IMG/VR virus record: IMGVR_UViG_3300029060_000171 | Span: 1-12,610 of that record | Source of the DNA: a virus | Lineage: Duplodnaviria; Heunggongvirae; Uroviricota; Caudoviricetes | Strand: one strand, 5' to 3' | Length of the DNA stretch: 12,610 nucleotides | Notes under the pieces: generated by a model | What the model was told of the DNA's origin: nothing | Databases searched by the model: none | The model's input: the letters and a program-made list of their open reading frames with translations, nothing else | In this document: positions 1 to 12,610 of the stretch, piece after piece | Position numbering within the stretch: the first letter of the stretch is position 1 | Layout of the letters: each line of letters starts with the position of its first letter | Program-made: the position numbers and the translations under genes

Positions 1-327
1 CTTCAGAGAACCCGTAATTATTCCCGGTAGTTTTCCTCTGTAGGTTATCAACACATCCTGCGCCTCTAAAATTACGGGGCGCTTTTCCGGCGACTGCTCA
101 TCCCCTTCACATAACCCGGCAGCAACATCCAGGAAGACCTGTCTGATGCTCCTTCTGGCTGCTGCCTCATAAAACTCCAGCGCGGCACCTTCAACACGGT
201 CCAGCGAGATGTCCAGGTCAAAAATTTCACCGTCAAAGCGTTTTTTGTCCCGTAACGCTAAAGTTACCGTAACTTTATTCTCAAAATTGCGGATCCCTTT
301 CACAATCAGTTCATAGTTTTGAGTCAT
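1..327 (-). CDS. uncharacterized phage lysis-cassette protein, C-terminus truncated by window edge (109 codons visible; N-term MTQNYELIVKGIRNFENK)
   Basis: ATG at 327..325 on minus strand with GGGGAGAG Shine-Dalgarno about 7 nt upstream. Frame stays open to position 1. Starts 5 bp after the holin stop. N-terminus is not hydrophobic, so this is not a SAR endolysin. It occupies the holin-to-endolysin slot where DUF1327/YdfR-type genes sit in Qin-type cassettes; that family assignment is from memory and unverified. Confidence 0.55.
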   Translation of the reverse strand, partial: MTQNYELIVKGIRNFENKVTVTLALRDKKRFDGEIFDLDISLDRVEGAALEFYEAAARRSIRQVFLDVAAGLCEGDEQSPEKRPVILEAQDVLITYRGKLPGIITGSLK

Positions 328-331
328 TGAA

Positions 332-547
332 TTACTCTCCCCGTGCAGCCTTACGACGGTCCTCTCTGATTTTGAAATACAGGTTAGTCAGATATGTCAG
401 CAGCCCAAACAGCAGACTCCCCAGCACGCCTATTGCCGCCCACTGAGACGGGGAAACCCTGTCCAGCAACTGCAGGAACCAGTAGCCCGTTCCCACCGCT
501 GACGTGGTGTATGACACACCTGTTGTGATTTTTTCCATCTGGTACAT
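332..547 (-). CDS. S: class II holin, phage 21 S21-type pinholin (71 aa; 68-aa form from internal Met-4)
   Basis: Translation [71 protein letters not shown] is near-identical over most of its length to the phage 21 pinholin as I recall it ([22 protein letters not shown]...[22 protein letters not shown]). Two in-frame Met codons three codons apart (M1, M4) match the antiholin/holin dual-start design. GGGAG Shine-Dalgarno upstream of M1. Confidence 0.85.
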
Positions 548-622
548 ACCCCGTCTCCCGCAATCCGGAAGCTCACAACAACAAGTGGGGCATCAGCTCA
601 CACCGACACCCCCTGCGCATGG

Positions 623-868
623 TTACATCATCATTTCGCTGTCAGGTGTGGGTTCACCGCCATCTGAAGCACTCCCGTCACCCGCGATACCTTCCGGCTC
701 CAGAACCGCTGGTACGCCCAGCAGCTCATCCAGAATGGCATCCACTTCTGCATCAAGACGCGCCTCAAGGTTCTGGCGGAGTTTCTGTTTCAGTGCGCTC
801 AGGACTTCTTCAGAGCGCAGGACTTCCTTCACTGCCTCAGCAGTGACCAGGGATGTGATTTCTGACAT
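623..868 (-). CDS. small acidic helical protein of unknown function (81 aa, MSEITSLVTAEAVKEVLRSEEVLSALKQ...)
   Basis: The six-frame track gives 623..1042, but the first ATG with a plausible context is at 868..866; the longer form has no start signal. Highly acidic C-terminal tail. Sits between the esterase and the holin. Start and reality both uncertain. Confidence 0.4.
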   Translation of the reverse strand: MSEITSLVTAEAVKEVLRSEEVLSALKQKLRQNLEARLDAEVDAILDELLGVPAVLEPEGIAGDGSASDGGEPTPDSEMMM

Positions 869-905
869 GGGATTTTCTCGTTGAAAGGTGTTGTCAAGAA
901 AGTGA

Positions 906-1088
906 CTACGGAATGAGCGGATCTTCGGGTTTGCTTCCGGCTGACTGACTGGCGCTGATTCTCTCAGCGGCCCTTTTATCAATCTGCCTGCGCCAGAAAT
1001 CGCGCACTGCCCTGTACCCACCCGAAAGAAGATACATAACACAGACTGCCGTACAGAAGTACAGCATCACCTGATGAATAAATGTCAT
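906..1088 (-). CDS. small putative membrane protein (60 aa, single N-terminal hydrophobic helix then basic tail)
   Basis: ATG at 1088..1086. N-terminal stretch IHQVMLYFCTAVCVMYLL is transmembrane-like. No strong Shine-Dalgarno, so low confidence. Confidence 0.3.
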   Translation of the reverse strand: MTFIHQVMLYFCTAVCVMYLLSGGYRAVRDFWRRQIDKRAAERISASQSAGSKPEDPLIP

Positions 1089-1185
1089 AATTTCTTACCG
1101 TTATGGTTGACAATGAGAACTGTTTTCATTTAAAAAACCGATATACGAAAGCATCTTTTCTTTACATTCTCCATTGGGATTACCT

Positions 1186-1223
1186 CCGCCAGCTTCCATT
1201 CCTGCCGCTGGCGGCCTTTTTTT
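1186..1223 (+). terminator. strong plus-strand intrinsic terminator: 8-bp GC stem CCGCCAGC/GCTGGCGG (1186..1193 / 1207..1214) followed by CC and T7
   Basis: Perfect inverted repeat followed by a T7 run at 1217..1223 on the plus strand. It directly abuts the stop codon (1225..1227) of the minus-strand esterase gene. On the minus strand the hairpin has no U-tract, so it is effective only against plus-strand (antisense) transcription. Confidence 0.5.
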
Positions 1224-1224
1224 A

Positions 1225-3186
1225 TCATGCCGCGGCATCCGCGTTGTTCACTTCCACCTTCACACTGTCAATCAGCAGCGTATATGTCGCCGCCTTTGAT
1301 ATGCCTGTCAGTTGCAGTTTGTCCGCCGCCCCTGATGCCGGAGATTTCACCAGTGTGAACGGCGTCCCCCGTTTCTCATCCAGTACCGGCGTCACCTGAA
1401 TGCTGTTGTTTCCGGCAAACTCAAAAGCCAGTGTGTGCCATCCGTTATCAAAGACCCCGAACGTATCCAGCTTCGCATTCGGCTTCTTGTGGTGCATCGC
1501 GTTCAGGTTCGTCGCATCCGTCTGCAGGAAGAAGGACATCAGCATGTCGTTGCCTTCCTCTGCCAGCGTCACTCCCTCCGGCAGGGACGACAACTGCCAG
1601 TAAATGCCCAGGGCAAACTGATTCGGCACCAGTGAACCCGGCAACTTAAACCGTACGCTCACACGTCCTCCTTTCTTCAGCAACTCTGCCCCCTGCCCGG
1701 CTGCATCATGCTCCAGAAACCAGATGTGGTTTTCCGGTTTATTCAGTTGCAGGGCCTTACCTCCCGTAGCCCCCGCATCACTGACCACCGCTTCAGCAAT
1801 GTTTTTGTTAACATTGTCTCCGCTCGCCGGTTTGTGATAATAGCGCCAGCCCTGTGATGCCAGGTCTTCGCCGGACGCCAGCAGACTCATCAGGGTTCGG
1901 TTACTGACCGGACCTTCCGGCTCTCTCTCCGTACCTTCACCGGAAGGTCCGGTGGGCTTCACCGTATCAGGCTGTTTTCCGGTAATGAATTCAGCGGTTC
2001 TCCCGGCATGCACAAGAATCGCCGTTGCCAGACGGTCGGAAATAATCCCACGACGTGCCCATGATCCAAAATGCGTTTTACGGTCAGCCGTCGTCCAGGT
2101 TTTGGCGTCCGTTCGACCACCGGCTCCGTAATACCCAATATCCGCAACATCCGGATCTTCTGACGGCTCGTTGGTACCCACATTTCGCCCGTTTTCATCC
2201 GTCATAAACGGCACAAAGAAGATTTTTTTTGCGGATTTCGTCTTATATGCACCATACACCGCATCGTATTGCGAAGAATAAGTCTGCTTCCAGTAGTAGG
2301 TCGTGTCGCCACAAATCCAGGGAACTGATGACGGAGAGCCCCCGAGACACTGACCTCCGAATTCCGACAGGTCAGAACGATATTTTTCCACCATGGAATC
2401 AAACAGCCCCGGCTGAGTGGCGTATGCACCCTGTTTCAAATCAAACTCGCCCTGCATCCAGACCACTGCAAGCAGAATATTTTTAGGGTTGGCCTTCAGT
2501 GCGGCCTGAGTACGGGTAAGCAGGTCCTTGTACAGTGGCTTATCTACACCCCAGCGTGCCGAGGTCTCGCTTGCGCCGGTGGATTCGCTGAAGGTACCTT
2601 CATCGCCCGCCAAAAATGCAGAACCACCACGGCAGCACGGAACCAGAAGAATACCGGCATTCGCCGGAATAAACGGCAACAATTTCTTCGCGATATGTAA
2701 TCCCTGCCCCACGCATCCATACTGAGCTGCGCTGGCTTTCGGGTGTGAAAACTTACTCAAATCCTGAACATCATGCAGGCAGTGGTCCGCAGGAATAATG
2801 TCATTGTAGTTACAGGACGCACCACCCGGCGTGACAGTGCTGCGACGCGCCAGCTGTTTAATACGCGGGTCCGGACGGTCATATGTCTCCGGCAGCGGAA
2901 GCCCTTCACCATACGCCATACCGTTTGACTGCCCGGCCAGGGCAACAACAAAGTAATACTCCGGGTTGCTGGTAGTGCTGATAACTGCGCCTTCTCCATC
3001 CGACGACTTCACCACCACAGGTGTGGTGACATCACCTTCCGCCGTAATGGCCTGCATCAGGGTATAAGGCGTGATGGCCACCGGACTGCCAAATGGCTGC
3101 CACCCCTCCTTCAGTTTTTGTGTCAGTCGTTTCGCAAGGTCTGACGGCGATGCCGCCCTGACCACGTCATAGTGTTTAAATGCCAT
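1225..3186 (-). CDS. nanS-p: prophage NanS-p-type sialate O-acetylesterase (9-O-acetyl-N-acetylneuraminate esterase): N-terminal DUF1737-like region, central SGNH/sialate-esterase-like domain, C-terminal lectin-like region; 653 aa
   Basis: ATG at 3186 with GGGAGGA Shine-Dalgarno 4 nt upstream. Size and layout match the 640-660-aa esterases found downstream of the tRNA/stx position in EHEC lambdoid prophages. Family call is by recall of that architecture, not by alignment. Confidence 0.75.
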   Translation of the reverse strand: MAFKHYDVVRAASPSDLAKRLTQKLKEGWQPFGSPVAITPYTLMQAITAEGDVTTPVVVKSSDGEGAVISTTSNPEYYFVVALAGQSNGMAYGEGLPLPETYDRPDPRIKQLARRSTVTPGGASCNYNDIIPADHCLHDVQDLSKFSHPKASAAQYGCVGQGLHIAKKLLPFIPANAGILLVPCCRGGSAFLAGDEGTFSESTGASETSARWGVDKPLYKDLLTRTQAALKANPKNILLAVVWMQGEFDLKQGAYATQPGLFDSMVEKYRSDLSEFGGQCLGGSPSSVPWICGDTTYYWKQTYSSQYDAVYGAYKTKSAKKIFFVPFMTDENGRNVGTNEPSEDPDVADIGYYGAGGRTDAKTWTTADRKTHFGSWARRGIISDRLATAILVHAGRTAEFITGKQPDTVKPTGPSGEGTEREPEGPVSNRTLMSLLASGEDLASQGWRYYHKPASGDNVNKNIAEAVVSDAGATGGKALQLNKPENHIWFLEHDAAGQGAELLKKGGRVSVRFKLPGSLVPNQFALGIYWQLSSLPEGVTLAEEGNDMLMSFFLQTDATNLNAMHHKKPNAKLDTFGVFDNGWHTLAFEFAGNNSIQVTPVLDEKRGTPFTLVKSPASGAADKLQLTGISKAATYTLLIDSVKVEVNNADAAA

Positions 3187-3368
3187 GAATCCTCCCGGCC
3201 GGGATAATATTGTGAGTAAAATAAGGAGCGGGCTGAAGTCCGGAAGTTACAGGACAATGGCAGAAGAGAGACGACAGCCCGCAATTCGAAAAAGACCGCG
3301 CAGTTGCGCAGCCTTATGAATTCTGGTTAAAATCCATTCGATTATAAAAATGTATATCTCATGCTGTT

Positions 3369-3425
3369 GCCCGAACCCACTCGGGCTTTTTTTTGCCCAC
3401 AAGAAAGCCCCTCCGGAGAGGGGCT
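3369..3425. terminator. pair of opposed hairpins: plus-strand terminator GCCCGA-ACCCAC-TCGGGC + T8 (3369..3394), and an 8-bp perfect hairpin AGCCCCTC-CGGA-GAGGGGCT (3406..3425) that on the minus strand is followed by UUCUUGU
   Basis: Both inverted repeats were read directly. The first is a textbook plus-strand terminator. The second is a possible weaker minus-strand terminator. Located in the tRNA-to-esterase intergenic region. Confidence 0.45.
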
Positions 3426-3639
3426 AAAGCCGCGTATCTGTATCATCATGCACATGATGCCGGGTGCCTCCCGGTGAGTTCAGTATCAGCACCTGAACCC
3501 GCACAGAAAGGATAAGGGGCGGTGACAAAACACCAGTTGCTGATTGCCCCTCCGCACAGGGGGATTCACCATGCCAGTTTCTTTTAACAAACTCCCCGCA
3601 AAACAGACAACTGTCAACCGTCTGAATTGTGAGACATTT

Positions 3640-3667
3640 AAAAAAAAGCCCGCAAAAGCGAGCCGGG
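3640..3667 (-). terminator. intrinsic terminator immediately downstream of the tRNA trio (minus strand: stem GCUCGC/GCGGGC, loop UUUU, then U8)
   Basis: The plus strand reads A8-GCCCGC-AAAA-GCGAGC; on the minus strand that is a 6-bp stem (one G-U pair) plus an 8-U tract, 12 nt after the 3' end of the last tRNA. Confidence 0.55.
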
Positions 3668-3678
3668 AAAAATAAGTC

Positions 3679-3755
3679 TGGCGCGTTGTACTGGATTCGA
3701 ACCAGTGACCGATTGCTTAGAAGGCAATTGCTCTGTCCGGCTGAGCTAATAACGC
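3679..3755 (-). tRNA. tRNA-Arg (anticodon UCU), CCA encoded
   Basis: Reverse complement folds as a cloverleaf: acceptor GCGTTAT/ACAACGC (one mismatch), D-arm GCTC..GAGC, anticodon stem ATTGC/GCAAT with loop CTTCTAA, T-arm ACTGG-TTCGAAT-CCAGT, then G-CCA. Matches the argO/argN-type rare-codon tRNAs carried next to Q in Stx-like phages. Confidence 0.8.
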
Positions 3756-3768
3756 AGGGTACAGATAA

Positions 3769-3845
3769 TGGACCGCCTTCGGGGACTCGAACCCCGCGCA
3801 ACCAGCTTCGAAGGCTGGCGCTCTTTCCTGATGAGCTAATGGCGG
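3769..3845 (-). tRNA. tRNA-Arg (anticodon UCG), CCA encoded
   Basis: Cloverleaf with anticodon stem CCAGC/GCTGG and loop CTTCGAA, T-arm CGGGG-TTCGAGT-CCCCG, acceptor CCGCCAT/AAGGCGG (one mismatch; unusual C1). The fold was read by hand, so the anticodon call is less certain than for the flanking tRNAs. Confidence 0.65.
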
Positions 3846-3852
3846 TATGTGA

Positions 3853-3928
3853 TGGTGGCCCTTGCTGGATTTGAACCAGCGACCTGGCGATTATGAGTCG
3901 CTCGCTCTCACCACTGAGCTAAAGGGCC
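3853..3928 (-). tRNA. tRNA with CAU anticodon, most likely tRNA-Ile2 (lysidine type, ileX/ileZ-like) rather than tRNA-Met
   Basis: Sequence GGCCCTTTAGCTCAGTGGTGAGAGCGAGCGACTCATAATCGCCAGGTCGCTGGTTCAAATCCAGCAAGGGCCACCA differs at only a handful of positions from E. coli tRNA-Ile2 (ileX) as I recall it. Anticodon loop CTCATAA. Confidence 0.8.
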
Positions 3929-3956
3929 GAGCCAAAAAATAATAATCAGATGAAAA

Positions 3957-4670
3957 TCAATAATCAAGCCCTTGCCTGGATACATATCTGTCTGGCGGGA
4001 AGCCATAATAGCGGTGAAATACAGAAATAAAGTAGGACCTGCTTGAATAACCGCATTTTTCTGCTATAGCCTGTCCATATCCATGCCGGGAACATAACAT
4101 ATTTACAGCAACACGCATCCGCTCTTCCAGCAACAAGCGACTGAACATGCCCCCTTCATTTTTCAGTTTTGTCTTTAACAAACTCTCACTCATATGCAAC
4201 TGTAGAGCAATCGCACCAAGCGTCCAGCTTGCTGATATATCTGTCTGAATTATCGCCCTGACTTTGGCACTTATGCTGGATAAACATCCACTTAAAAACA
4301 ATGACATCCGTTCATCTGTTTCAAACAGAGACAGGCAGGCCATCATAAGAAACATATCCGTGGCCTCTCCGGAAAATCCCTGGCTGGTAATTAAAGCCGC
4401 AGCCAACGCAGGATTGTTGGGTTCCAGCAACAGGTAAAGCGGAATGTCAGTCAGACGAGTCCTCGTCAGCTTATGCTGACTTTCCAGATATTGACTTACG
4501 ACGGATTCGCTTATATCGACAATTTTAACTTTGCCATAATGCATAAGGAAAAGCTCCCTGATGCATTTGGTGGCCAGAACAACTGAGCCTGGCTTAAGTG
4601 ACAACGTATCCTTTTCAAGAAAAATATTAATTGGGGAGCAAACCATGATAACTGAACAGACAACAGCCAT
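3957..4670 (-). CDS. AraC/XylS-family transcriptional regulator (237 aa), prophage cargo
   Basis: C-terminal 100 aa carries the two-HTH AraC signature (WTLGAIALQLHMSESLLKTKLK...YGQAIAEKCGYSSRSYFISVFHRYYGFPP). AT-rich codon usage. A perfect TATAAT (minus strand, at 4706..4711) lies about 35 nt upstream of the ATG. Could belong to the prophage-encoded AraC-like regulators reported in EHEC (Psr/PatE type), but I cannot confirm identity. Confidence 0.8.
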   Translation of the reverse strand: MAVVCSVIMVCSPINIFLEKDTLSLKPGSVVLATKCIRELFLMHYGKVKIVDISESVVSQYLESQHKLTRTRLTDIPLYLLLEPNNPALAAALITSQGFSGEATDMFLMMACLSLFETDERMSLFLSGCLSSISAKVRAIIQTDISASWTLGAIALQLHMSESLLKTKLKNEGGMFSRLLLEERMRVAVNMLCSRHGYGQAIAEKCGYSSRSYFISVFHRYYGFPPDRYVSRQGLDY

Positions 4671-4790
4671 TATAATTTTACTTTCATTAGCAATTGGTTA
4701 GCTCAATTATAGCCCCAAAAGGTAAATTATCATCAACACATAAGCAAAGGACTGACAGGTGTCGCCCCCCCACCAGCCGCCCATTCACCA

Positions 4791-4818
4791 CAAATAAAAA
4801 GCCTTCAGGACTGAAGGC
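4791..4818 (-). terminator. intrinsic terminator overlapping the stop codon of the 65-aa ORF (stem GCCTTCA/TGAAGGC followed on the minus strand by UUUUUAUUUG)
   Basis: Perfect 7-8-bp inverted repeat at 4801..4818, with an A-run on the plus strand at 4791..4800 (a U-run on the minus strand). Confidence 0.5.
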
Positions 4819-5002
4819 GTCTGTAACAACCGCACTGATAGTCTGCCAGACCCGCCATAACAAGCTGGGTCAGTATTAACTGGCAGCGTTCGCGTGAAAG
4901 GTAAGTATTCTGCGCAATCTCCCCGACTGTCGCCGGTTCGGTAACGCTTAATTCATCAAACACAACTCTGGCGGTTTCTGTCATATCCTGCTGTTTCAGC
5001 AT
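4805..5002 (-). CDS. small HTH/winged-helix-like protein of unknown function (65 aa)
   Basis: ATG at 5002 with GGAAAGGG about 9 nt upstream. Segment VGEIAQNTYLSRERCQLILTQLVMAGL looks like an HTH recognition helix. Ends in its own terminator. Confidence 0.45.
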   Translation of the reverse strand: MLKQQDMTETARVVFDELSVTEPATVGEIAQNTYLSRERCQLILTQLVMAGLADYQCGCYRRLQS

Positions 5003-5122
5003 GTCTTTTTACCCTTTCCGGTTAACGTGACATACCAATAACTCTTGTCTAAAAAGCCAGCAAGATAAAAAGCCAGTATTCACGACCACCAGCGTGTTTA
5101 CTGTACTGCACCAAGTTTACAG

Positions 5123-5150
5123 GTACAAAAAACCCGCTCAGTGGCGGGTT
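5123..5150 (-). terminator. intrinsic terminator about 130 nt downstream of the 205-aa gene (minus strand: AACCCGC-CACUGA-GCGGGUU then UUUUGU)
   Basis: 7-bp stem read directly at 5131..5150; U-rich tract on the minus strand. Confidence 0.55.
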
Positions 5151-5280
5151 TAAGTTGTGTGGCGAAGTAACCACTCTTAACACACTAATAGCATTTTTGT
5201 TATAACACAAGTAACTCATTCAGTATTTTTAGAATCTTGACTTTCTTAAGCACGGCGAACTCTGAATACCAAACATAAAA

Positions 5281-5898
5281 TCAATTATCTTCCAGGCCGG
5301 ATGCTATCAACGAAAGCCTCTCAAAAAACGCTGTAGCAGCCTTGTCCAAAGTTGAATAAGTACTGTATTCTCCGTGTTCGGGACCAACCACTACCCATGG
5401 TCGTCTTTTTGGGATTCGGGACTTCTCAGAAATCACTGTTCCAGATATACCAATATCAATTGTTACACCTGTTATTATTTTCTCTTCATCTCTTTCCCTG
5501 AACTCAATTGCCATAAATGCCGTTTTTTTTCGTTTCCCGTTTTTAAAAAAATCAAATAAAGCAAAGCGATGCTCATTAAAATCAACACCCCATCGTCCTT
5601 CAGGATAAAGGGCATGAAAGTTGTCATTTACGCTCTGCATCGTCTCATAAGCTTTAACTTCTAAATCTCCATAGTGCATAGATACCGCGCAGGAGTCACT
5701 GGGTAACTGTATTTTCCCAAGATTGAAAACCTTTACTGCTCCAGAACTATGGCATCTTGCCCGCAATTTATCCCCATTTATACTAATCGGAGAAATATTC
5801 CTTAATGTTCCGGGCTGGCTCCCTCCTAAGTAAACGACTGTTAAAGATTGCTTATTTTCAATTGCATCAACTAATACATGCTCTACATTTTTATCCAT
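5281..5898 (-). CDS. hypothetical protein, 205 aa, no recognisable family; AT-rich orphan cargo gene immediately downstream of Q
   Basis: The track ORF 5281..5925 starts at an ATG with no Shine-Dalgarno (it is preceded by CCUCC). The in-frame ATG at 5898..5896 has a GGGAGG Shine-Dalgarno 5 nt upstream, so MDKNVEHVLVDAIENK... is the likely start. Flanked by a 5' hairpin and a 3' terminator. Confidence 0.7.
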   Translation of the reverse strand: MDKNVEHVLVDAIENKQSLTVVYLGGSQPGTLRNISPISINGDKLRARCHSSGAVKVFNLGKIQLPSDSCAVSMHYGDLEVKAYETMQSVNDNFHALYPEGRWGVDFNEHRFALFDFFKNGKRKKTAFMAIEFRERDEEKIITGVTIDIGISGTVISEKSRIPKRRPWVVVGPEHGEYSTYSTLDKAATAFFERLSLIASGLEDN

Positions 5899-5900
5899 AA

Positions 5901-5935
5901 TAACCTCCCAATGAACAGGTATCATCAGGAGGTTA
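5901..5935 (-). promoter_or_regulatory. Shine-Dalgarno-sequestering hairpin in the 5' leader of the 205-aa gene (mRNA: UAACCUCC - 19-nt loop - GGAGGUUA - UU - AUG)
   Basis: Perfect 8-bp complementarity between 5928..5935 and 5901..5908. The downstream arm is the Shine-Dalgarno itself, and the start codon begins 2 nt after the stem. Confidence 0.5.
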
Positions 5936-5973
5936 TAATAAAATATGATTATTTACTTTGATTGAATTTATTA

Positions 5974-6345
5974 CTATATGTAACAATCAATTTCTAAAGA
6001 TACCCCCAACATTGCCAGACAACCGTCAATAAACCCTTCAGCTTTCTGCAGTCTGATAACAACCTGATTAAGTGATATCCCCAGTTTTACCCCCAACACC
6101 CGTAATGTAACCCCATACACATAATACATTTCCAGTAATTCGTATTGATACGGTTCCTTTTTCTTAAGAACTGTCATCGCAGAGCTAATGATCAGGCCAT
6201 CGTCATCGCTACATTGCGGGCGGGATTTTACTTTCGAAGGAATTAATCCCTTAAAACCTGCAGCAACAGATGACCATTCCACATCCTCGTGATTATTTGC
6301 CACCCATGCCCCCCAACGTTCAAGAACCATTTGAATATCACGCAT
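5974..6345 (-). CDS. Q: late-gene antiterminator Q, QuuD/phage-82 type (about 123 aa)
   Basis: N-terminus MRDIQMVLERWGAWVANNHEDVEWSSVAAGFKGL matches my recollection of DLP12 QuuD / Q82-family proteins; the C-terminus is sigma-region-4-like. ATG at 6345 with GGAGAAA Shine-Dalgarno; the track ORF extends to a TTG at 6360. Confidence 0.75.
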   Translation of the reverse strand: MRDIQMVLERWGAWVANNHEDVEWSSVAAGFKGLIPSKVKSRPQCSDDDGLIISSAMTVLKKKEPYQYELLEMYYVYGVTLRVLGVKLGISLNQVVIRLQKAEGFIDGCLAMLGVSLEIDCYI

Positions 6346-6362
6346 CAACTTTCTCCACAAAA

Positions 6363-7358
6363 TCAGGCCAGCACGCCTATTGCCAGCGCACGATCGATAA
6401 AACGAAATATCAGCTCCAGCTGGGAGCCATACTTCTCTTCAAATGCCACGGTATCCGCATGCAGCTCGTCGTGATGCTTTCTGCACAAAGGCAGCACGAA
6501 GAGGTCATGCGCTTTTGTACCCATTCCCCCCTGACCGTGGCCTATCAGGTGGTGGGGATCATCAGCAGGCTTTCCACAACATGCACACGGCTGCGTCTTA
6601 ACCCAGCGCGTGTACTTTTCATTAACCCAGCGGCGACGTTTGGGGCGTAACATAAAAGACTCCGGCGACTCCGGATCCACTTTCAGCGCCAGCACCTTTT
6701 TCGCTTTATCCTGGATGATGCTGGTGGCAGGAACCGAAGGCACAAGGTCACTTTCCCGGGTGACAGACGGCACAACAGGCTTCGGTAATCTCAGTGCCTT
6801 ACGGGCTGCACTTTCCGGTAAGGCATCCGCCAGGTCATTACGAATCAGCCACCAGCACAGTTCCGGCATTGTCACAACGTGACTGTCATCAAAACCGAGA
6901 TCCCGACGCACAACAGACAACACCCAGCGGGCACAGTTATCCGTTGCCATTGATTCCAGCCGTTCCGTGAACTGATCGCGCAGCTGGTTATCGCAGTGCC
7001 AGCACAGACGGATTGCACCCGGAGCGTGTCGCATTGTGGTCATGTTCTCGCTGTGCCATCCGGAATGAGGCCACTGGCAGCCTTTTTCACGAAGTAACCA
7101 GCTTTCAAGACATTCCACGCCACCAGCACGACGGATCACTGCCTCATGGCGGAACACGGCCCGAACGGCAGGATCATCCGCCAGCGGTTGTGATGCCGCC
7201 GGAACGGCACCACTGGCGAAAGATGAATAACGCTCCGGCTCAGGCTCCAGCAGGACACGCCCCTGCATAAACAGGGGCATCAGCTCTGAACCTGGCCTGA
7301 ACAATACGATCCCCATACGCGGGGCAATTTCAGGGGTCAGTAGTGCTCTCACAGTCAC
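6363..7358 (-). CDS. DUF968-like (YdfU-like) nin-region protein with C-terminal Cys/His-rich HNH-like motif (331 aa)
   Basis: C-terminus CACCGKPADDPHHLIGHGQGGMGTKAHDLFVLPLCRKHHDELH. Position just upstream of Q matches ydfU in Qin-type prophages. Start is a GTG directly after the KilA-N stop; exact start uncertain. Confidence 0.65.
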   Translation of the reverse strand: MTVRALLTPEIAPRMGIVLFRPGSELMPLFMQGRVLLEPEPERYSSFASGAVPAASQPLADDPAVRAVFRHEAVIRRAGGVECLESWLLREKGCQWPHSGWHSENMTTMRHAPGAIRLCWHCDNQLRDQFTERLESMATDNCARWVLSVVRRDLGFDDSHVVTMPELCWWLIRNDLADALPESAARKALRLPKPVVPSVTRESDLVPSVPATSIIQDKAKKVLALKVDPESPESFMLRPKRRRWVNEKYTRWVKTQPCACCGKPADDPHHLIGHGQGGMGTKAHDLFVLPLCRKHHDELHADTVAFEEKYGSQLELIFRFIDRALAIGVLA

Positions 7359-7359
7359 C

Positions 7360-8175
7360 TCAATGAACGGTATCGAGCAGCTTTAACAGCTCAGGAAATC
7401 GGGATTCGAAGAAATGCGGCTGCGTCTCGCGCGGATTTGCAGGACTGGTGATGTTCTTGCCGAACATGCAGCCTTTCGCGGTCAGCGACCAGAATTTTTT
7501 GATGTTGTTAATCGCGGTACGGCTGTATCGTTCGCGTTGTTCAACGATCCCCAGCTTCGCCATCTGGTGATATGCCTGATTAGCCGTCAGGCGGATACCA
7601 TACTGCTTCAGCAGTGCACTCAGCGACAGCGTAGGGCGGCTTGAACCATCTGGCGCATCAGCAGGTGCATCAATGGCATAGATCGGCATAAGTTCAGGAA
7701 GACCAGCTACCTTTGATAATTTCTGGTATGCACCAAGTTTCGAGGAGTTTGACAGATTTAGAGTCTTTGCTGCTGATTCAAGCAGAATGACCCCGGATTT
7801 AATTTTGTCGGATGTGGTTTCTTCTGGTGATGAATTATGAAGCGCATCAAAAGTACGTATCACTTTTAAGCTGAATGCCGGGCTGATCCACATTGCATAT
7901 GCATAGACCAGCTCTTTACAGACATACGTCCCACCATTGCGCCCCTGAATGGTGATGACAGGAATACTACGGGAATCTCCCGTAGTTTCTTCTTCCAATA
8001 ATTCCACAAGAGCCTTCGTTTCAGGACGACGCATAAACTCGTGAACTTCCAGCGAACGGGAGGAGCGATTCTCACCAGCGGCAAGAAGAGCAGCTTTCTG
8101 AAGGTCGTTAAGACAGTAGTTAGATTCGAAGTACTGGCGCACAGAAACGCCATCAATTACAAGCAACTGATTCAT
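7360..8175 (-). CDS. KilA-N domain protein (antirepressor/Roi-like), about 271 aa
   Basis: N-terminal 100 aa end in the KilA-N signature GGTYVCKELVYAYAMWISPAFSLKVI. ATG at 8175 with GGAGAAA Shine-Dalgarno (the track start at 8187 is a GTG). A 150-bp upstream intergenic region contains a LexA box. Confidence 0.7.
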   Translation of the reverse strand: MNQLLVIDGVSVRQYFESNYCLNDLQKAALLAAGENRSSRSLEVHEFMRRPETKALVELLEEETTGDSRSIPVITIQGRNGGTYVCKELVYAYAMWISPAFSLKVIRTFDALHNSSPEETTSDKIKSGVILLESAAKTLNLSNSSKLGAYQKLSKVAGLPELMPIYAIDAPADAPDGSSRPTLSLSALLKQYGIRLTANQAYHQMAKLGIVEQRERYSRTAINNIKKFWSLTAKGCMFGKNITSPANPRETQPHFFESRFPELLKLLDTVH

Positions 8176-8272
8176 TGGTTTCTCCACAAATTTTTATCCA
8201 CGAGCGGGACTGCACTCCCTTTTCGTTGATGCAGGATGAACTTACTGCGATTTTTAATAGTTATCAAGGATA

Positions 8273-8292
8273 CACTGTTCATAAATACAGTA
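8273..8292. promoter_or_regulatory. SOS box (LexA operator) CACTGTTCATAAATACAGTA in the RusA/KilA-N intergenic region
   Basis: Perfect CTGT-N8-ACAG core with AT-rich spacer and flanking A/TA, matching the E. coli LexA consensus TACTGTATATATATACAGTA. Followed on the minus strand by TTGATA - 17 nt - TAAGTT, a possible promoter. About 100 nt upstream of the KilA-N start. Confidence 0.5.
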
Positions 8293-8337
8293 TCTTTAAC
8301 GAGGTAATACCCAAATTTAGGGTGTTGCTCAATTCCG

Positions 8338-8733
8338 TTACCGAGTTGCTAATTTGCAACTCGCTTTTTCGTACTTACTGATAGTGATCTCGACCTTCCC
8401 CTCCGGGATAACCGGTCCCCACTCCACCAGCATTCTTTTCACCTGACTGTCGTCTTCCCACACACCCGCGTGGGTCAGGGCGTCAAACAGCGCCTTGTTA
8501 TAGTTGTCCAGATCGCGGATCCGGTTATCCGGAGGAAACAACACGATCTCCACTGAAGCAGGTGCCGACGTTGGTTTCGGCAGACGACGTAACTGCTCAA
8601 CTATTGCTGCACACGCCGCGCTCTGGAATTTTCGCCCCGCCGCGCTTATCAGGCTCTTACCAGCAAACGCCCCTTTGTTGGGGTGTCGCCAGTACGTGTT
8701 CACGCTGGGCGGAAAAGGCAGTATTAGCTTCAT
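8338..8733 (-). CDS. rusA: RusA-family Holliday junction resolvase (131 aa)
   Basis: N-terminus LPFPPSVNTYWRH and central RDLDNYNKALFDALTHAGVWEDDSQV match the RusA signature (PWPPS.N.YYRH ... RDLDN..KA.FDALTKAGFW.DD.QV). ATGA overlap with the upstream gene. Confidence 0.85.
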   Translation of the reverse strand: MKLILPFPPSVNTYWRHPNKGAFAGKSLISAAGRKFQSAACAAIVEQLRRLPKPTSAPASVEIVLFPPDNRIRDLDNYNKALFDALTHAGVWEDDSQVKRMLVEWGPVIPEGKVEITISKYEKASCKLATR

Positions 8734-9056
8734 ACTTTCAGGCCCCTCTCATGTAACCAGTGGGTTGCACGCAGCCTTGCGTTTTCCTCACCGGCAAGCA
8801 GTGCGCGGATAATCCCGACCGCCTCGCTGTCGTCGTCCTTCATCGCAGTATGAAGCGTTATCCCCCGGGCCACGCCACGCTTTATCGTGATGACGCCTTT
8901 TTTCTCCAGTGCGCGAAGATGCTCCACCGCTGCATTCACCGAACGGTATCCCAGCATGGTTGCCACCTCCTGATTGGTTGGCGGGAAGCCACGTTCTTTC
9001 TGATAAGAAATCAGCATATCCAGCACCTGCTGCTGGCATTGAGTTAACGTCGTCAT
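8730..9056 (-). CDS. LexA N-terminal DNA-binding-domain-only protein (108 aa; no S24 peptidase domain)
   Basis: LTQCQQQVLDMLISYQKERGFPPTNQEVATMLGYRSVNAAVEHLRALEKKGVITIKRGVARGITL parallels LexA residues about 1-70 ([55 protein letters not shown]). The protein ends 40 aa later with no Ala-Gly cleavage / Ser-Lys catalytic region. Confidence 0.7.
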   Translation of the reverse strand: MTTLTQCQQQVLDMLISYQKERGFPPTNQEVATMLGYRSVNAAVEHLRALEKKGVITIKRGVARGITLHTAMKDDDSEAVGIIRALLAGEENARLRATHWLHERGLKV

Positions 9057-9706
9057 GCCGCCATCTCCCTGACCAGTTTTTCCGCCTGCTGGCGAACCTG
9101 CGCCAGAAACGCCTCACCACATGCCTCAAGTTCATCGCGCCCTATGTAGCTGATTGCCGGTCCCTTCCAGGTCTTGTCGAAAACAGCAATAGCACCAGCG
9201 AAGAAAGCACCTGTTGGCACCTGCTTTTCGTCTTTCGGGATAAACCAGGCAGGCAGTTCAAAACCAATACGCCCGCGAATAAAAGCAATATGATCTGCAT
9301 CTTCCGGCCACCACACTTCGCTGGTGGCAGCTTTGATCAGGAAAACATAGCGCCCGCCTTTATCACGCATGGCACTGGCATGCTTCATGATGTAACGCAT
9401 GCCTGTGATGTATTGCCCCTCATGCTGACTGGCGCGGCTGTACGGGGGATTACCAAAGGCAGCACCTTTAAGCTCCGCAAGACGTTCAGACCAGTCATGC
9501 GCCAGCGCGTTGTCTTCCGCAGTGTAATAAGCGGCACATTTGGCGTTATCACCATCAGTGAACAGATCCAGAACAAACGGGCCAAACAGGGTGTTAATTC
9601 CCCAGAAAATGTTGTCCGGCGTGCGCCACTGATCGCCCACTTCCTTCAGTTCATGGGCTGGTTTGTTCCGCAGCTCCACCAGCGCCTGGCAATATTTATT
9701 ACTCAT
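9053..9706 (-). CDS. phage-type DNA N6-adenine methyltransferase (Dam family), 217 aa
   Basis: Motif GNPPYS (the NPPY/DPPY catalytic motif) in a protein of the size and position typical of lambdoid nin-region Dam methylases. ATG at 9706 with GGGGG Shine-Dalgarno (the track start at 9739 is a GTG). Confidence 0.85.
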   Translation of the reverse strand: MSNKYCQALVELRNKPAHELKEVGDQWRTPDNIFWGINTLFGPFVLDLFTDGDNAKCAAYYTAEDNALAHDWSERLAELKGAAFGNPPYSRASQHEGQYITGMRYIMKHASAMRDKGGRYVFLIKAATSEVWWPEDADHIAFIRGRIGFELPAWFIPKDEKQVPTGAFFAGAIAVFDKTWKGPAISYIGRDELEACGEAFLAQVRQQAEKLVREMAA

Positions 9707-10200
9707 TAAGCCCCCACGTAATTCCCTGACAGATACCACTCTTCACCCGATGCAGCGCGCTTGCTGCTTTTCCGTAAGCACCGCTCACGATGCGCCAGAA
9801 AATTGTTTCGTTCTGGCTGGGAGTGGCTTTCACGGAATGCCTCCATCCACACCGTTGCAGCTCGACGGAATAAGCCCCTGGACTCCAGTTCTTCCGCCTG
9901 GCGAGTCAGGCACAAAATCACCTGCGGGTCGTTAGTGCCGACACAGAAATTGCGCACAGGTCTGGTTTCACGAACTGGTTGTGGTTCCGGCTCCTGTGCT
10001 CTCTCAGTCAGGCGCGGGAAATGTCTGCGTGTATCTCCTTCACAACGGTGAGCCACACGCCCACTCTGACGTAACTTGCTTGCTGACTGCAGAACGCGCT
10101 GCCGTGAGTAACCTGCAAAAGCATCCGCAATGTCTCCGGAAGTACACCCCGGATGGGCTTCAATGAATTTCTGAACTTCATTCAAAAGACTCATGATCAC
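9706..10200 (-). CDS. PerC-family-like protein (YfdN-like), 164 aa: N-terminal HTH-like region plus C-terminal PerC-like motif
   Basis: C-terminal AEELESRGLFRRAATVWMEAF...ERNNFLAHRERC resembles the PerC/Pch motif (LE..GLWRRAA..W ... RR..C) as I recall it. Same size and Dam-adjacent position as yfdN in CPS-53. Assignment unverified. Confidence 0.55.
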   Translation of the reverse strand: MIMSLLNEVQKFIEAHPGCTSGDIADAFAGYSRQRVLQSASKLRQSGRVAHRCEGDTRRHFPRLTERAQEPEPQPVRETRPVRNFCVGTNDPQVILCLTRQAEELESRGLFRRAATVWMEAFRESHSQPERNNFLAHRERCLRKSSKRAASGEEWYLSGNYVGA

Positions 10201-11015
10201 CCCCTGAATCCTGCCGGGATCTGGCTGTAGTCCACGTTGTCGTAACTGGCTTTGAAGTACGGGTCCTCGCGTCTGGCTGCAGATACCGCAGGAACTTCCC
10301 AGGATTCTTCGAAATGACGATCCGGACCAAAGAACGTGACAGCCTGTTTCACAAATTGTGTGCCGCTGTTACCCATCGCAGATACCCAGCCCGCGTAGCG
10401 TTTCACACCTTCCAGCATGGTTTCGGGTTTTACCCCCTCATTCAAACGGGCTTTCCAGGCTTTGAAGGCTGCAGATTTTGAATTGCCACCAGCACGTTTT
10501 GGATAGGCCAGCCATGCCTGCTCAAACTCCGGAGAGTATTCCGGTCGGTTTGAACGAACTCGCACAGACTCATCAGCAGATGCACCAACAGCTATTGGTT
10601 CATTGACTGGTTCTTTGACTGGTTCAAAAGAGTGACTGGTTCTGGGTGAATCTCCTGCACTACCCCCTGGTGCAACTCCTGCACTACCTGGTGAATTTGC
10701 TGCACCAGATAGTGAATTATTTGCACTACCCCCTAGTGAATCTCCTGCACCATCAAGATGAAGGAGATAGATATTACTTGAGTTACCTTTTTCACCTTTC
10801 CGGGTGACTTTTTTTACCAGCCCGGACTCACAAAGGGCCGCAATATGATTCATCACAGAACGTTTGCTAATCTCGCACTGGTCAGCAATATGCTGGTAGC
10901 TGGGCCAGCACTCACCCTGATCGCTGGCATTATCAGCCAGCTTAATCAGAACCAGTTTTCGCAATGGATTTCCCACTCGAATTTTCATCGCTTTAACCAT
11001 CAACTCCATACTCAT
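10197..11015 (-). CDS. replication initiator / replisome organizer (lambda O-like: N-terminal HTH domain, low-complexity linker encoded by iterons, conserved C-terminal domain), 272 aa
   Basis: N-terminal LRKLVLIKLADNASDQGECWPSYQHIADQCEISKRSVMNHIAALCESGLV is replisome-organizer HTH-like. C-terminal PEFEQAWLAYPKRAGGNSKSAAFKAWKARL is like the conserved phage replication-protein C-terminus. The central Gly/Ser/Ala/Pro linker is encoded by direct repeats. GGAGGTG Shine-Dalgarno. Confidence 0.75.
   Translation of the reverse strand: MSMELMVKAMKIRVGNPLRKLVLIKLADNASDQGECWPSYQHIADQCEISKRSVMNHIAALCESGLVKKVTRKGEKGNSSNIYLLHLDGAGDSLGGSANNSLSGAANSPGSAGVAPGGSAGDSPRTSHSFEPVKEPVNEPIAVGASADESVRVRSNRPEYSPEFEQAWLAYPKRAGGNSKSAAFKAWKARLNEGVKPETMLEGVKRYAGWVSAMGNSGTQFVKQAVTFFGPDRHFEESWEVPAVSAARREDPYFKASYDNVDYSQIPAGFRG
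10603..10757. repeat. putative origin of replication: five 21-25-bp iterons with internal dyad GTGAA/GTGCA-N5-TGCAC (10646..10757) plus three TGACTGGTTC repeats (10603..10642), all inside the O-like gene
   Basis: Direct repeats read from the sequence: GTGAATCTCCTGCACTACCCCCTG / GTGCAACTCCTGCACTACCTG / GTGAATTTGCTGCACCAGATA / GTGAATTATTTGCACTACCCCCTA / GTGAATCTCCTGCACCATCAA. AT-rich stretches flank the array. Analogous to ori-lambda iterons within O. Confidence 0.6.
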
Positions 11016-11236
11016 GCAGCACCTCCGAGATGCTTCATGTTTTTTCCGGAGCGAAAGGCTATAAGCGGCATACTGACGCGGTAATTACGGCCCAGCGGTT
11101 CACAAATCACCTTCTGACATTCACGGTCAACCAGGCTAACACGTAGAACATGCCCTGCAGGCGTGGTGTACCACTGACCCGGACGAGGACAACGGAAAGT
11201 ATGATTGGTAAACCGTTTGAAAATATTCCGGATCAT
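11012..11236 (-). CDS. small Cys-containing protein of unknown function (74 aa)
   Basis: ATG overlaps the Rha stop (ATGA) and is preceded by AGGGGG Shine-Dalgarno. Its stop overlaps the O-like start. A diverged homolog is encoded upstream at 11779..12105 (shared MIRNIFK.FTN and PG..YT..A). Confidence 0.45.
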   Translation of the reverse strand: MIRNIFKRFTNHTFRCPRPGQWYTTPAGHVLRVSLVDRECQKVICEPLGRNYRVSMPLIAFRSGKNMKHLGGAA

Positions 11237-12105
11237 TTACGCCCCCTTACCTCTGAAGGGTTCAGCGACAAATTTATGAGACTGGCCAGTAGCGCCGCGT
11301 CGTTGATGCGGTCATACAGACTTACAGCCAGCGGGGATTCGGCTTTTGCCAACATGGGATAAAGCTGCTGCAGCCAGACCTTGTGGATTACCGACAGGTG
11401 GGAGTAAAGCACGCTGGCGTTATCTGCGGCATCGCTCAGCGTGGATGGCTTTGAAAGCAGTTTTTCCATCTGGTTAAAGGCATTGATGTATGCCTCTTTG
11501 AACCGGGCAGCACGTTTACCCGTGAAACCCATAGCAAGAAACGCAAAGCCGTCGCGGGTTATTTGATAGCAAGGTAGTTTGCGGCCTGTGCAATCGGTGT
11601 AATCACTCACCGAAAAATTGCGGGCAGTGAATGATGCAGAGCATTCAAGCGTGCGGATCTTTTTCAGTACATCGTCATGACGTTTGGAGAAGAAGTTGGC
11701 AACAGCCAGGGATGAAGTAACAGCCTGACCATCAACGATGGCAATTTCAGGTTGAGTGAGGGTTGGGATCGTAGCCATGATGGCAGCCTCTTTGGTGATT
11801 TTTAATAACTCACCACCAAGGCTTTCCACGACCTTATTGGTGGTGAGACGTACAGGGGTGGAAATACCGGTCACCAAAGAACCCGGCCCAACCGAAGTTG
11901 GCCCTGCACGCCCCACCATAATTTGGGCGTAACGATGCTCATGACACGAAAAAACCGCATGAGCGCGGTTGTGCTCTATATTGAATTTCGGGTTTCCACG
12001 CCCGGCACCCGCTTTATAAGGTGCCTGAACAGTGTAACGTCCCGGAATTGCAGAATCAATATGCTGGTGGCGATTGGTAAACAGTTTGAAAATATTCCGG
12101 ATCAT
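11233..12105 (-). CDS. rha: Rha-family phage regulatory protein. The Rha domain is 11233..11778 (181 aa, own AAAGAGG Shine-Dalgarno and ATG at 11778); the ORF continues in frame upstream to an ATG at 12105, adding 109 aa homologous to the 74-aa small ORF.
   Basis: TSSLAVANFFSKRHDDVLKKIRTLE ... GRKLPCYQITRDGFAFLAMGFTGKRAARFKEAYINAFNQME is the Phage_pRha signature. Whether the product is a 290-aa fusion or two proteins cannot be decided from sequence. Confidence 0.7.
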   Translation of the reverse strand: MIRNIFKLFTNRHQHIDSAIPGRYTVQAPYKAGAGRGNPKFNIEHNRAHAVFSCHEHRYAQIMVGRAGPTSVGPGSLVTGISTPVRLTTNKVVESLGGELLKITKEAAIMATIPTLTQPEIAIVDGQAVTSSLAVANFFSKRHDDVLKKIRTLECSASFTARNFSVSDYTDCTGRKLPCYQITRDGFAFLAMGFTGKRAARFKEAYINAFNQMEKLLSKPSTLSDAADNASVLYSHLSVIHKVWLQQLYPMLAKAESPLAVSLYDRINDAALLASLINLSLNPSEVRGRK

Positions 12106-12610
12106 TTACGCCCCCTTACCTCTGAAGGATTCAGCGACAAATTTATGAGGCAGGCCAGCGCCGAAGCATCATTAATATAGTCATACAAGCTAACAGCCAG
12201 CGGAGATTCGGCTTTTGCCAACATAGGATAAAGCTGCTGCAGCCAGACCTGATGAATTGATGAAATGTAGGAATAGAGAACGCTGGCGTTATGTGCAACG
12301 TCGCTCGGTACAGCGGGCTTTGAAAGCTGTTTCTCCATCTGGTTAAAGGCATTGATGTATGCCTCTTTGAACCGGGCAGCACGTTTCCCCGTGAAGCCCA
12401 TGGCAAGAAACGCAAAACCGTCGCGGGTGATTTGGTAACAAGGGAGTTTGCGGCCTGATGCGTCGGTGTATTCACTTAACACAAAATTGTGTTCAGTAAA
12501 TTCAGCGGAACATTCGAGGTTTCTAATTCTATCTAAAACCCGCTCATGCCGTTTAGTAAAGTAATTAGCTACTGCAAGAGATGTGGTGACAACGCGACCA
12601 TTGATAATCG
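12073..12610 (-). repeat. second copy of a tandem paralogous duplication of about 868 bp (first copy about 11205..11778): Rha gene 3' portion plus the start of the following small ORF
   Basis: The two copies align throughout with frequent substitutions. They include identical runs such as CTGGTTAAAGGCATTGATGTATGCCTCTTTGAACCGGGCAGCACGTTT and the junction GTTTGAAAATATTCCGGATCATTTACGCCCCCTTACCTCTGAAGG. Confidence 0.7.
12102..12610 (-). CDS. rha: Rha-family phage regulatory protein, paralog 2, N-terminus outside window
   Basis: Frame is open from the window edge; translation ...TTSLAVANYFTKRHERVLDRIRNLECSAEFTEHNFVLSEYTDASGRKLPCYQITRDGFAFLAMGFTGKRAARFKEAYINAFNQMEK... is a diverged paralog of the first Rha protein. 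The track start at 12482 is a GTG inside the real ORF. Confidence 0.7.
   Translation of the reverse strand, partial: IINGRVVTTSLAVANYFTKRHERVLDRIRNLECSAEFTEHNFVLSEYTDASGRKLPCYQITRDGFAFLAMGFTGKRAARFKEAYINAFNQMEKQLSKPAVPSDVAHNASVLYSYISSIHQVWLQQLYPMLAKAESPLAVSLYDYINDASALACLINLSLNPSEVRGRK

Follow-up and report, generated by a model that had tools for sequence, protein, structure and literature searches.

The DNA analysed here, referred to as the window, is a stretch of 12,610 nt (positions 1 to 12,610 of the IMG/VR record IMGVR_UViG_3300029060_000171, assigned to Caudoviricetes). Near its right end lies a minus-strand gene for a 272-residue replication initiator, and this gene carries within its own open reading frame (ORF) the putative replication origin that is the subject of this analysis. 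Two kinds of repeat make up the origin: an array of five dyad-symmetric iterons and, abutting the last of them, an element built from phased copies of the 10-mer GAACCAGTCA. The coordinates of these features are collected in Table 1.

The initiator protein consists of an N-terminal winged helix, a disordered linker encoded by the putative origin and a C-terminal helical module. Residues 17-67 match Pfam HTH_36 with 44.1 bits (cut-off 25), and the family phrog_270, "replication initiation protein", matches the protein over its full length (residues 3-271, E = 1.4e-88). In an AlphaFold2 model built on a 34-sequence alignment, the winged helix is confident (residues 1-87, predicted local distance difference test score, pLDDT, 78-91). 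Residues 94-157, which are encoded by the iterons and the GAACCAGTCA element, are disordered (pLDDT 30-46), and three C-terminal helices follow at residues 162-214 (pLDDT 58-77). The DNA of the gene is 98-99% identical to replication genes of SfV (orf39), mEp460, cdtI, 1720a-02 and many Stx2c and Stx2a phages, and the protein is 88% identical to sb42 of ST64B. In SfV, mEp460, cdtI and ST64B the gene carries a replication-protein annotation.

Table 1. Features of the initiator gene and the putative origin, in positions of the window
Feature	Position	Strand	Basis
Replication initiator gene, 272 residues	10197-11015	-	ORF list and translation; Pfam HTH_36; PHROG 270
Coding region of the C-terminal module, residues about 158-272; presumed recruiter of the host replisome (DnaB/DnaC)	10200-10544	-	
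Invariant phased GAACC(AGTCA) element abutting the last iteron; candidate unwinding or loading core	10597-10645		Exact copies, codon constraint
Iteron array, five 19-bp imperfect palindromes	10644-10752		Motif count, Tandem Repeats Finder, repeat finder, homologous arrays
Least stable A+T-rich segment, on the N-domain side of the array; alternative candidate for first unwinding	10750-10800		Nearest-neighbour stability, G+C content
Coding region of the winged-helix DNA-binding N-domain, residues 1-87; presumed iteron-binding module	10755-11015	-	

The 15-bp cores of the iterons lie at 10646-10660, 10670-10684, 10691-10705, 10712-10726 and 10736-10750, with centre-to-centre spacings of 24, 21, 21 and 24 bp. 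A preliminary description, made from the letters of the window, had listed five GTGAA/GTGCA-N5-TGCAC repeats, and all five are there. The plus-strand pattern GTGMA-N5-TGCAC occurs five times in the window, always within the array, against an expected 0.03, and none of 200 shuffles reaches this count. Four copies read GTGAA...TGCAC and one reads GTGCA...TGCAC. Tandem Repeats Finder and a repeat finder both recover the array, with periods of 21 and 24 bp. Among 43 distinct iterons of this class the gene-sense consensus is TRGTGCA-NNANN-TKCACYA (T-R-GTGCA-N5-TKCAC-Y-A), in which the half-sites are invariant and the 5-bp spacer is variable. The repeats encode residues about 88-142, GAGDSLGGSANNSLSGAANSPGSAGVAPGGSAGDSPRTSHSFEPVKEPVNEP, and thus lie in the linker segment, where they had been placed. 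In the complete 44.5-kb genome of mEp460, iterons and 10-mer are found at this locus only, inside the initiator gene. Iteron copy number is polymorphic (4, 5, 7 or 8), with protein length classes of 250, 272, 294 and 302 residues in E. coli and Shigella. For example, cdtI (L001 6001-6885) has 8 iterons, its three extra units adding 66 nt as a block of 24+21+21.

On the plus strand, exact copies of TGACTGGTTC occupy 10604-10613, 10616-10625 and 10633-10642, in agreement with the three repeats first reported, and a fourth, degenerate copy (GGTTC) occupies 10597-10601. These repeats had been described as preceding the iterons, which is true of the plus strand; the gene is on the minus strand, and in its direction the iterons come first and the GAACCAGTCA copies after. 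The TGACTGGTTC repeats are part of an element of about 37 bp, CCAGAACCAGTCACTCTTTTGAACCAGTCAAWGAACC, which in gene sense is CCCAGAACCAGTCACTCTTTTGAACCAGTCAAAGAACCAGTCAATGAACC (codons CCC AGA ACC AGT CAC TCT TTT GAA CCA GTC AAA GAA CCA GTC AAT GAA CC). The sense-strand layout in the window is ...GTGCAGGAGATTCAC CC AGAACCAGTCAC TCTTTT GAACCAGTCAAA GAACCAGTCAAT GAACC. Within the 272-residue gene the 10-mer is read in two frames, as R-T-S-H and then as E-P-V-K and E-P-V-N.

Homologues were fetched from Aeromonas (AsXd-1), Vibrio (D67, D68, D79 and other Vibrio phages), Stx2a_F451/Min27, Klebsiella (RothD), Pectobacterium (ZF40), mEp013 and Pseudomonas (Riah, PotUPM1). All of them carry 3-6 tandem dyad repeats right after the winged helix, with half-sites that differ by lineage (GTGAC/GTCAC, GGGCA/TGCCC, TGCCA/TGGCA and CTGTGC/GCACAG among others). 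From scans of viral contigs (at least 120 loci) and of one genome per species (80 loci) came 144 distinct arrays, in which adjacent spacings are 21 bp (118), 22 bp (37), 23 bp (41), 24 bp (130) and 18 bp (1). The 22- and 23-bp spacings, 78 of 327 (24%), are not multiples of three, and one DNA repeat is therefore read in different frames within one ORF. Such copies are found at loci L025, L032, L039 and L089. At L032 cctaGTGAAAAATCTGCAC is translated as PSEKSA and tatgGTGAAAGATTTGCAC as MVKDLH, and in D79 the corresponding peptides are VTESH and GDRESH. The spacing is about two helical turns, which would fit helical phasing rather than codon phasing.

The codons of the window point the same way. 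The conserved nucleotides of the repeats do not respect codon boundaries: GT is common to the Gly and Ser codons, a third-position T to those for Asp, Asn and Val, and a first-position C to those for Leu and Pro, and Ala is always GCA. The G+C content of third codon positions is 0.22-0.40 across the repeats and the next 45 nt, compared with 0.5-0.7 in the flanking coding sequence. To judge from these comparisons, the repeats are evidently under selection as DNA and not as peptide. The preliminary description had named, as a finding that would speak against an origin, homologues that keep the repeats solely as coding sequence, and the comparison came out in favour of its proposal. What homologues keep is the architecture, while the sequence of the repeat is specific to the lineage. 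At least 12 half-site classes were distinguished, each paired with a variant of the recognition helix in the N-domain (SKRSVMNH with GTGCA, CSKSAVRNH with TGCCA, DRSTVRKH with TAGGC, GRSTVKxH with GGGCA). Covariation of this kind is as expected for cognate sites and weakly suggests that the iterons are such.

The GAACCAGTCA element behaves differently from the lineage-specific iterons. Whatever the class, the distance from the start of the last iteron to ACCAGTCAC is always 20 nt, and at least two phased copies of GAACC(AGTCA) follow. At least 120 viral contigs share this composite layout, as do 75 of the 80 species-level genome loci, which were gathered through the N-domain only. The element was thus found in prophages from Escherichia to Pseudomonas and Shewanella, across many gamma-proteobacterial genera, including Enterobacter, Pseudomonas, Proteus, Rahnella, Xenorhabdus, Providencia, Aeromonas, Shewanella, Aliivibrio, Marinomonas, Vreelandella and Microbulbifer. 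Riah and PotUPM1, two distant Pseudomonas phages, have phased AGAACC copies 11-12 bp apart. In initiators that share only the C-terminal module of the window (Stx1_699 "O" and Tritos) the element is absent, and it therefore belongs with the HTH_36 N-domain family.

Constraint on the element extends to synonymous positions. Across seven lineages whose N-domains are only 50-70% identical, codons for identical residues are themselves identical in 196 of 206 cases (95%) in the element, compared with 467 of 1161 (40%) in the N-domain. In a sample gathered via the N-domain protein alone, and hence unbiased for the element, the three codon positions of the element hold 1.49, 1.56 and 1.48 bits of information, and those of the N-domain core 1.43, 1.59 and 0.51 bits; even at N-domain residues that are at least 90% conserved the third position holds only 0.63 bits. 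The reading frame also shifts. In Shewanella prophages the spacer is 2 nt shorter and RTSH gives way to PEPVT, and in Aliivibrio three copies are read as RTSH, RTSQ and EPV. The TGACTGGTTC repeats are thus no lineage-specific detail but the most conserved part of the whole locus. With synonymous positions constrained and the word kept across reading frames, the conserved peptide motif RTSHSFEPVNEP / EPxxEP is best read as translated constrained DNA.

Two loci of the survey, L156 and L191 (prophages of Pseudomonas bharatica and Erwinia tracheiphila), have initiator ORFs of only 399 and 354 nt, truncated by frameshifts located at the element or ahead of it, with iterons and element intact. This suggests that both are decaying prophages.

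The element, though not the iterons, could instead be a recombination joint at which lambdoid phages swap the N- and C-modules of their initiators, its identity being kept by frequent exchange. Boundary sequences between lambdoid modules were proposed earlier, in the modular theory of phage evolution. The position of the element agrees with this, as it marks the exact boundary between lineage-specific iterons and C-terminal modules of nine mutually unrelated clusters, and sequence identity stops abruptly on both sides of it. A joint is nevertheless unlikely. The element is internally repetitive, with 2-4 phased copies of the 10-mer, and copy number and spacing shift while the word is kept. N-domain identity is as low as 34-38% in Riah and PotUPM1, where the phased GAACC persists and the exact word does not. 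Its association with the HTH_36 family, and its absence where only the C-module is shared, also count against a joint, and 37 bp is short for efficient homologous exchange. These features fit a protein-related or unwinding-related DNA site better.

The replication module of this phage consists of the initiator alone, with no P-like partner gene. The window holds no gene for a helicase, loader or primase, nor does the annotation of the near-identical, plaque-forming phage mEp460 list one anywhere in its complete genome. Matches of the C-terminal module in PHROG are to the C-terminal parts of the "DnaD-like helicase loader" and "primosomal protein" families. The same module (…EYSPEFEQAW..YPKRAGGNSKSAAFKAWKAR…TFFGPDRHFE…) is joined to unrelated N-domains in Stx1_699 "O" (L218 1997-2905) and in phage Tritos (L219 1769-2839). 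In phages other than the one analysed here the module is found beside DnaC/DnaB genes; Stx1_699 "O", for instance, has DnaC-like and DnaB-like genes after it. The Tritos initiator gene has repeats of its own, which are different. Some relatives with the same type of initiator do encode partners: AsXd-1 a DnaC-like and a DnaB-like protein, F451/Min27 a primase-helicase and ZF40 a helicase.

All in all, the lambdoid prophage, which is of the SfV/mEp460/cdtI/Stx2c type, very probably has its origin of theta replication at 10597-10800, inside the gene of its own initiator. The preliminary description had proposed a prophage origin resembling ori-lambda. Comparison of homologues, the fold of winged helix and linker, and the confinement of the sites to one place in mEp460 all support such a lambda-style in-gene origin, with origin activity itself argued by analogy with ori-lambda and O. 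By the same analogy we infer binding, oligomerisation, unwinding and helicase recruitment. Through its winged helix the 272-residue protein would bind as a dimer to each of the five dyad-symmetric iterons of 19 bp, and the iteron spacing of about two turns would put the dimers on one face of the DNA, where they could assemble into a nucleoprotein complex similar to the O-some. The resulting strain would open a neighbouring segment, most likely the GAACCAGTCA-repeat element abutting the last iteron, or alternatively the A+T-rich flank across the array. The C-module would then recruit host DnaB-DnaC, which are proposed here because the phage encodes no helicase, loader or primase. The GAACCAGTCA element is favoured as the opening or loading site because of a family-wide G+C minimum and its fixed junction with the iterons. 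On average over the family it is the lowest-G+C stretch after the iterons (0.41), and at the Riah and PotUPM1 loci it is among the 2-2.5% least stable 40-bp segments.

Several points weigh against this reading. In the window the element ranks only about 1600-2700 of 12570 by nearest-neighbour stability (about 13-21%), so it is only moderately unstable, and with about 41-46% G+C it has a weak resemblance to the usual 40-bp A+T-rich tract. The least stable flank, 10750-10800, is on the side of the array opposite the element, which makes either side a candidate for first unwinding. The 40-bp segments of this flank rank about 283-328 of 12570, with a G+C content of 0.40-0.43 compared with about 0.5 around it. 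The composition of the flank may partly be a by-product of coding, as the segment encodes the conserved wing GEKGNSSNIYLLHLD. No DnaA box, promoter or GATC cluster is found at the origin region, and the nearest DnaA-like boxes (at most one mismatch) are at 8194 and 11382. The covariation of iteron class with recognition helix is weak as independent evidence because the two are physically adjacent and co-inherited. Helicase recruitment is a conjecture, as searches of Pfam and PDB gave no sequence match to the C-terminal module and no characterised homologue of it was found. Finally, no published binding assay, ori-plasmid test or marker-frequency data were found for the HTH_36 initiator family.

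Some of the same points would agree with the iterons being true initiator sites that serve control, through titration, handcuffing, a transcription roadblock or exclusion of related phages, with the DNA being opened elsewhere. Plasmid iterons do have control roles (PMC4980987, PMC5397158), and the weak A+T-richness next to the array and the lack of host-factor sites such as DnaA boxes speak for such a role. Even so, a purely regulatory array is quite improbable. The genome of mEp460 has a single site cluster and no second set of iterons, and a second, "real" origin is disfavoured because iterons and 10-mer are confined there to one locus. The strict junction between the last iteron and the element looks like a functional composite, as in ori-lambda, and the family-wide dip in G+C after the iterons fits an unwinding element. 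It is scarcely credible that the repeats are a mere low-complexity Gly/Ser/Ala/Pro linker born of replication slippage and kept for length or flexibility, with the DNA functionless: the region does encode a disordered linker, the repeat number changes in 66-nt steps as from slippage or unequal crossing-over, and all five copies in the window share one frame, but this peptide-only explanation appears essentially refuted by the frame and spacing data (24% of homologue spacings at 22 or 23 bp, one DNA word giving unrelated peptides in L032 and D79), and conserved positions that straddle codon boundaries, invariant half-sites around a variable spacer, and dyad symmetry in each unit, for which a peptide repeat has no reason, are equally at odds with it.

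Nine 9-mers resembling the DnaA box (TTATCCACA, at most one mismatch) occur in the window, where 2.9 are expected and none of 200 shuffles reaches nine; they start at 45, 2540, 5768, 5891, 6351, 7884, 8180, 8194 and 11382, all outside the origin. Two of them form a close pair (8180-8202) not far from the KilA-N gene start. A terminator-like hairpin with a T run (TCACCTTTCCGGGTGA CTTTTTTTAC) is located at 10792-10816 on the plus strand, antisense to the initiator gene and inside the A+T-rich flank; the number of such hairpins is at chance level (1 found, 1.2 expected). A search for known RNAs in the region gave one microRNA match in Rfam, far below threshold and caused by the palindromes, and it was rejected as spurious.

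A further, more tentative proposal concerns the role of the element within the origin. The chances seem slightly below even that the approximately 37-bp GAACCAGTCA element is a sequence-specific core for DNA opening or helicase loading, common to a superfamily of gamma-proteobacterial phage origins, with the dyad iterons giving only lineage specificity. The recogniser of such a core could be the conserved part of HTH_36 or a universal host factor. In the former case recognition might be by monomers, for example, or of the element in single-stranded form. It would follow that the peptide motif RTSHSFEPVNEP / EPxxEP is a by-product of selection on the DNA, with no function as a protein motif.

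The origin segment (10560-10830) is widespread, being present in 925 of 5426 complete E. coli genomes (17%). Among the matches listed, the E. coli annotation reads only "helix-turn-helix domain-containing protein", with no origin feature. The replication module is also that of Stx2c-converting phages and of cdtI, SfV and ST64B. A number of 33-53-kb "plasmid" records carry the initiator, such as NZ_CP148393.1 (44.6 kb), CP077666.1 (38.9 kb) and NZ_CP118695.1 (41.5 kb). These look like circular phage genomes or phage-plasmids, as do many Arsenophonus records with a related N-domain. They look unlike minimal replicons and are at most weak functional evidence for the origin.

An in-gene iteron origin is textbook knowledge. 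New here are the invariant core common to at least 12 specificities across gamma-proteobacterial prophages and its unannotated presence in E. coli. No description of an HTH_36-family origin or of the GAACCAGTCA element was found in the literature, with the caveat that an earlier mention is possible. If the reading is true, the origin could be located in a large class of prophages of medical relevance, and a simple rule would serve to recognise it: dyad repeats spaced by 21-24 bp that end 20 nt before ACCAGTCAC. The matched initiator/iteron specificities, at least 12 of them with the same core, would form a natural series for studying the evolution of origin specificity and for building orthogonal replicons. 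The locus would also be a clear case of a "conserved protein motif" that is a DNA element read through. It raises a mechanistic question as well, namely how host DnaB is captured by a phage that has only one replication protein and lacks a helicase loader.

The surroundings of the initiator gene are typical of lambdoid phages. Upstream are Rha/Ash regulators and a small PHROG 1153 gene. Two adjacent Rha-family genes are on the minus strand, one at 11233-12105 with an Ash N-domain and a Rha domain, the other, a Rha-family paralogue at 12102-12608, cut off by the end of the window. The downstream neighbours are PerC-like, Dam, LexA-like, RusA, KilA-N, DUF968/HNH, Q, an AraC-like regulator and a SASA-type esterase. 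The minus-strand genes at 1225-3186, 3957-4670 and 5974-6360 encode, respectively, a 653-residue DUF1737/SASA/DUF6645 esterase-like protein, an AraC-family regulator and the Q antiterminator. They form a late-regulatory region as in Stx-type lambdoid prophages, and no stx gene was seen in the window.

Among Gram-positive phages, origins within initiator genes are known for SPP1 G38P and the lactococcal phage Rep proteins, alongside DnaD-type replisome organisers. The present origin resembles these in its location, but its hosts are gamma-proteobacteria. In the 272-residue protein a DnaD_N match is below threshold, and a DnaB_2/DnaD C-terminal domain was not detected. To our knowledge, no conserved element like GAACCAGTCA has been described for the DnaD-type or Gram-positive phage systems.

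The iteron plasmids pPS10, F, R6K and RK2 have arrays of about 20-bp repeats that bind a winged-helix initiator and lie beside an unwinding element with short repeats, and the locus described here would correspond to them in these respects. Their Rep proteins bind specific single-stranded DNA in the unwinding element (PMC4081077, PMC4980987). The differences are that plasmid iterons lie outside the rep gene, whereas here they are intragenic; that the DnaA boxes usual in plasmids are absent from the origin here; and that plasmid iterons are direct repeats bound by monomers, whereas here they are dyads. Pfam gives no match of the Rep_3 type (two winged-helix domains) for the 272-residue protein.

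In P22 a rep_origin is likewise annotated within an initiator gene, gene 18, and its direct repeats lead into an A-rich tract. The product, gp18, differs in belonging to Phage_rep_O, the gene next to it encodes a DnaB-type helicase of the phage's own (gene 12), and the locus has no GAACCAGTCA element. P22 gene 18 was considered as a characterised relative and rejected, being of the lambda-O type and unrelated (BLASTP of the 272-residue protein with gp18, E = 2.4).

The closest parallel is ori-lambda, as in lambda and the Stx phages 933W and P27. In lambda the origin is in the middle of O, with O-binding iterons followed by an A+T-rich tract that the O-some destabilises while recruiting the helicase (PMC7466680; bioRxiv 10.1101/2025.04.02.646746). 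The iterons proximal to the A+T-rich tract suffice for unwinding, and the O genes of lambda and Stx phages have 4 or 6 iterons, the larger number lengthening O by 13 residues (PMC7466680). The term "O-like" used in the preliminary description is apt for the architecture of the initiator, but the protein is no homologue of lambda O, as the N-domain is HTH_36 and not Phage_rep_O. The iterons do differ from those of lambda, as had been stated, and the two sequences are unrelated. Downstream of the gene a P-like partner is replaced by PerC-like and Dam genes, and the array abuts an invariant phased GAACCAGTCA element common to at least 12 iteron specificities rather than a plain A+T tract. Other features are shared. 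Both lie in the middle of the initiator gene and encode the linker between its domains, both have tandem dyad iterons that measure about 19 bp, with a tract of lower G+C content (here on the family average) on the side towards the end of the gene, and in both the number of iterons varies among relatives and alters the length of the protein. The division of labour would also be the same, with the N-domain giving origin specificity and the C-domain, here presumably, recruiting the helicase.

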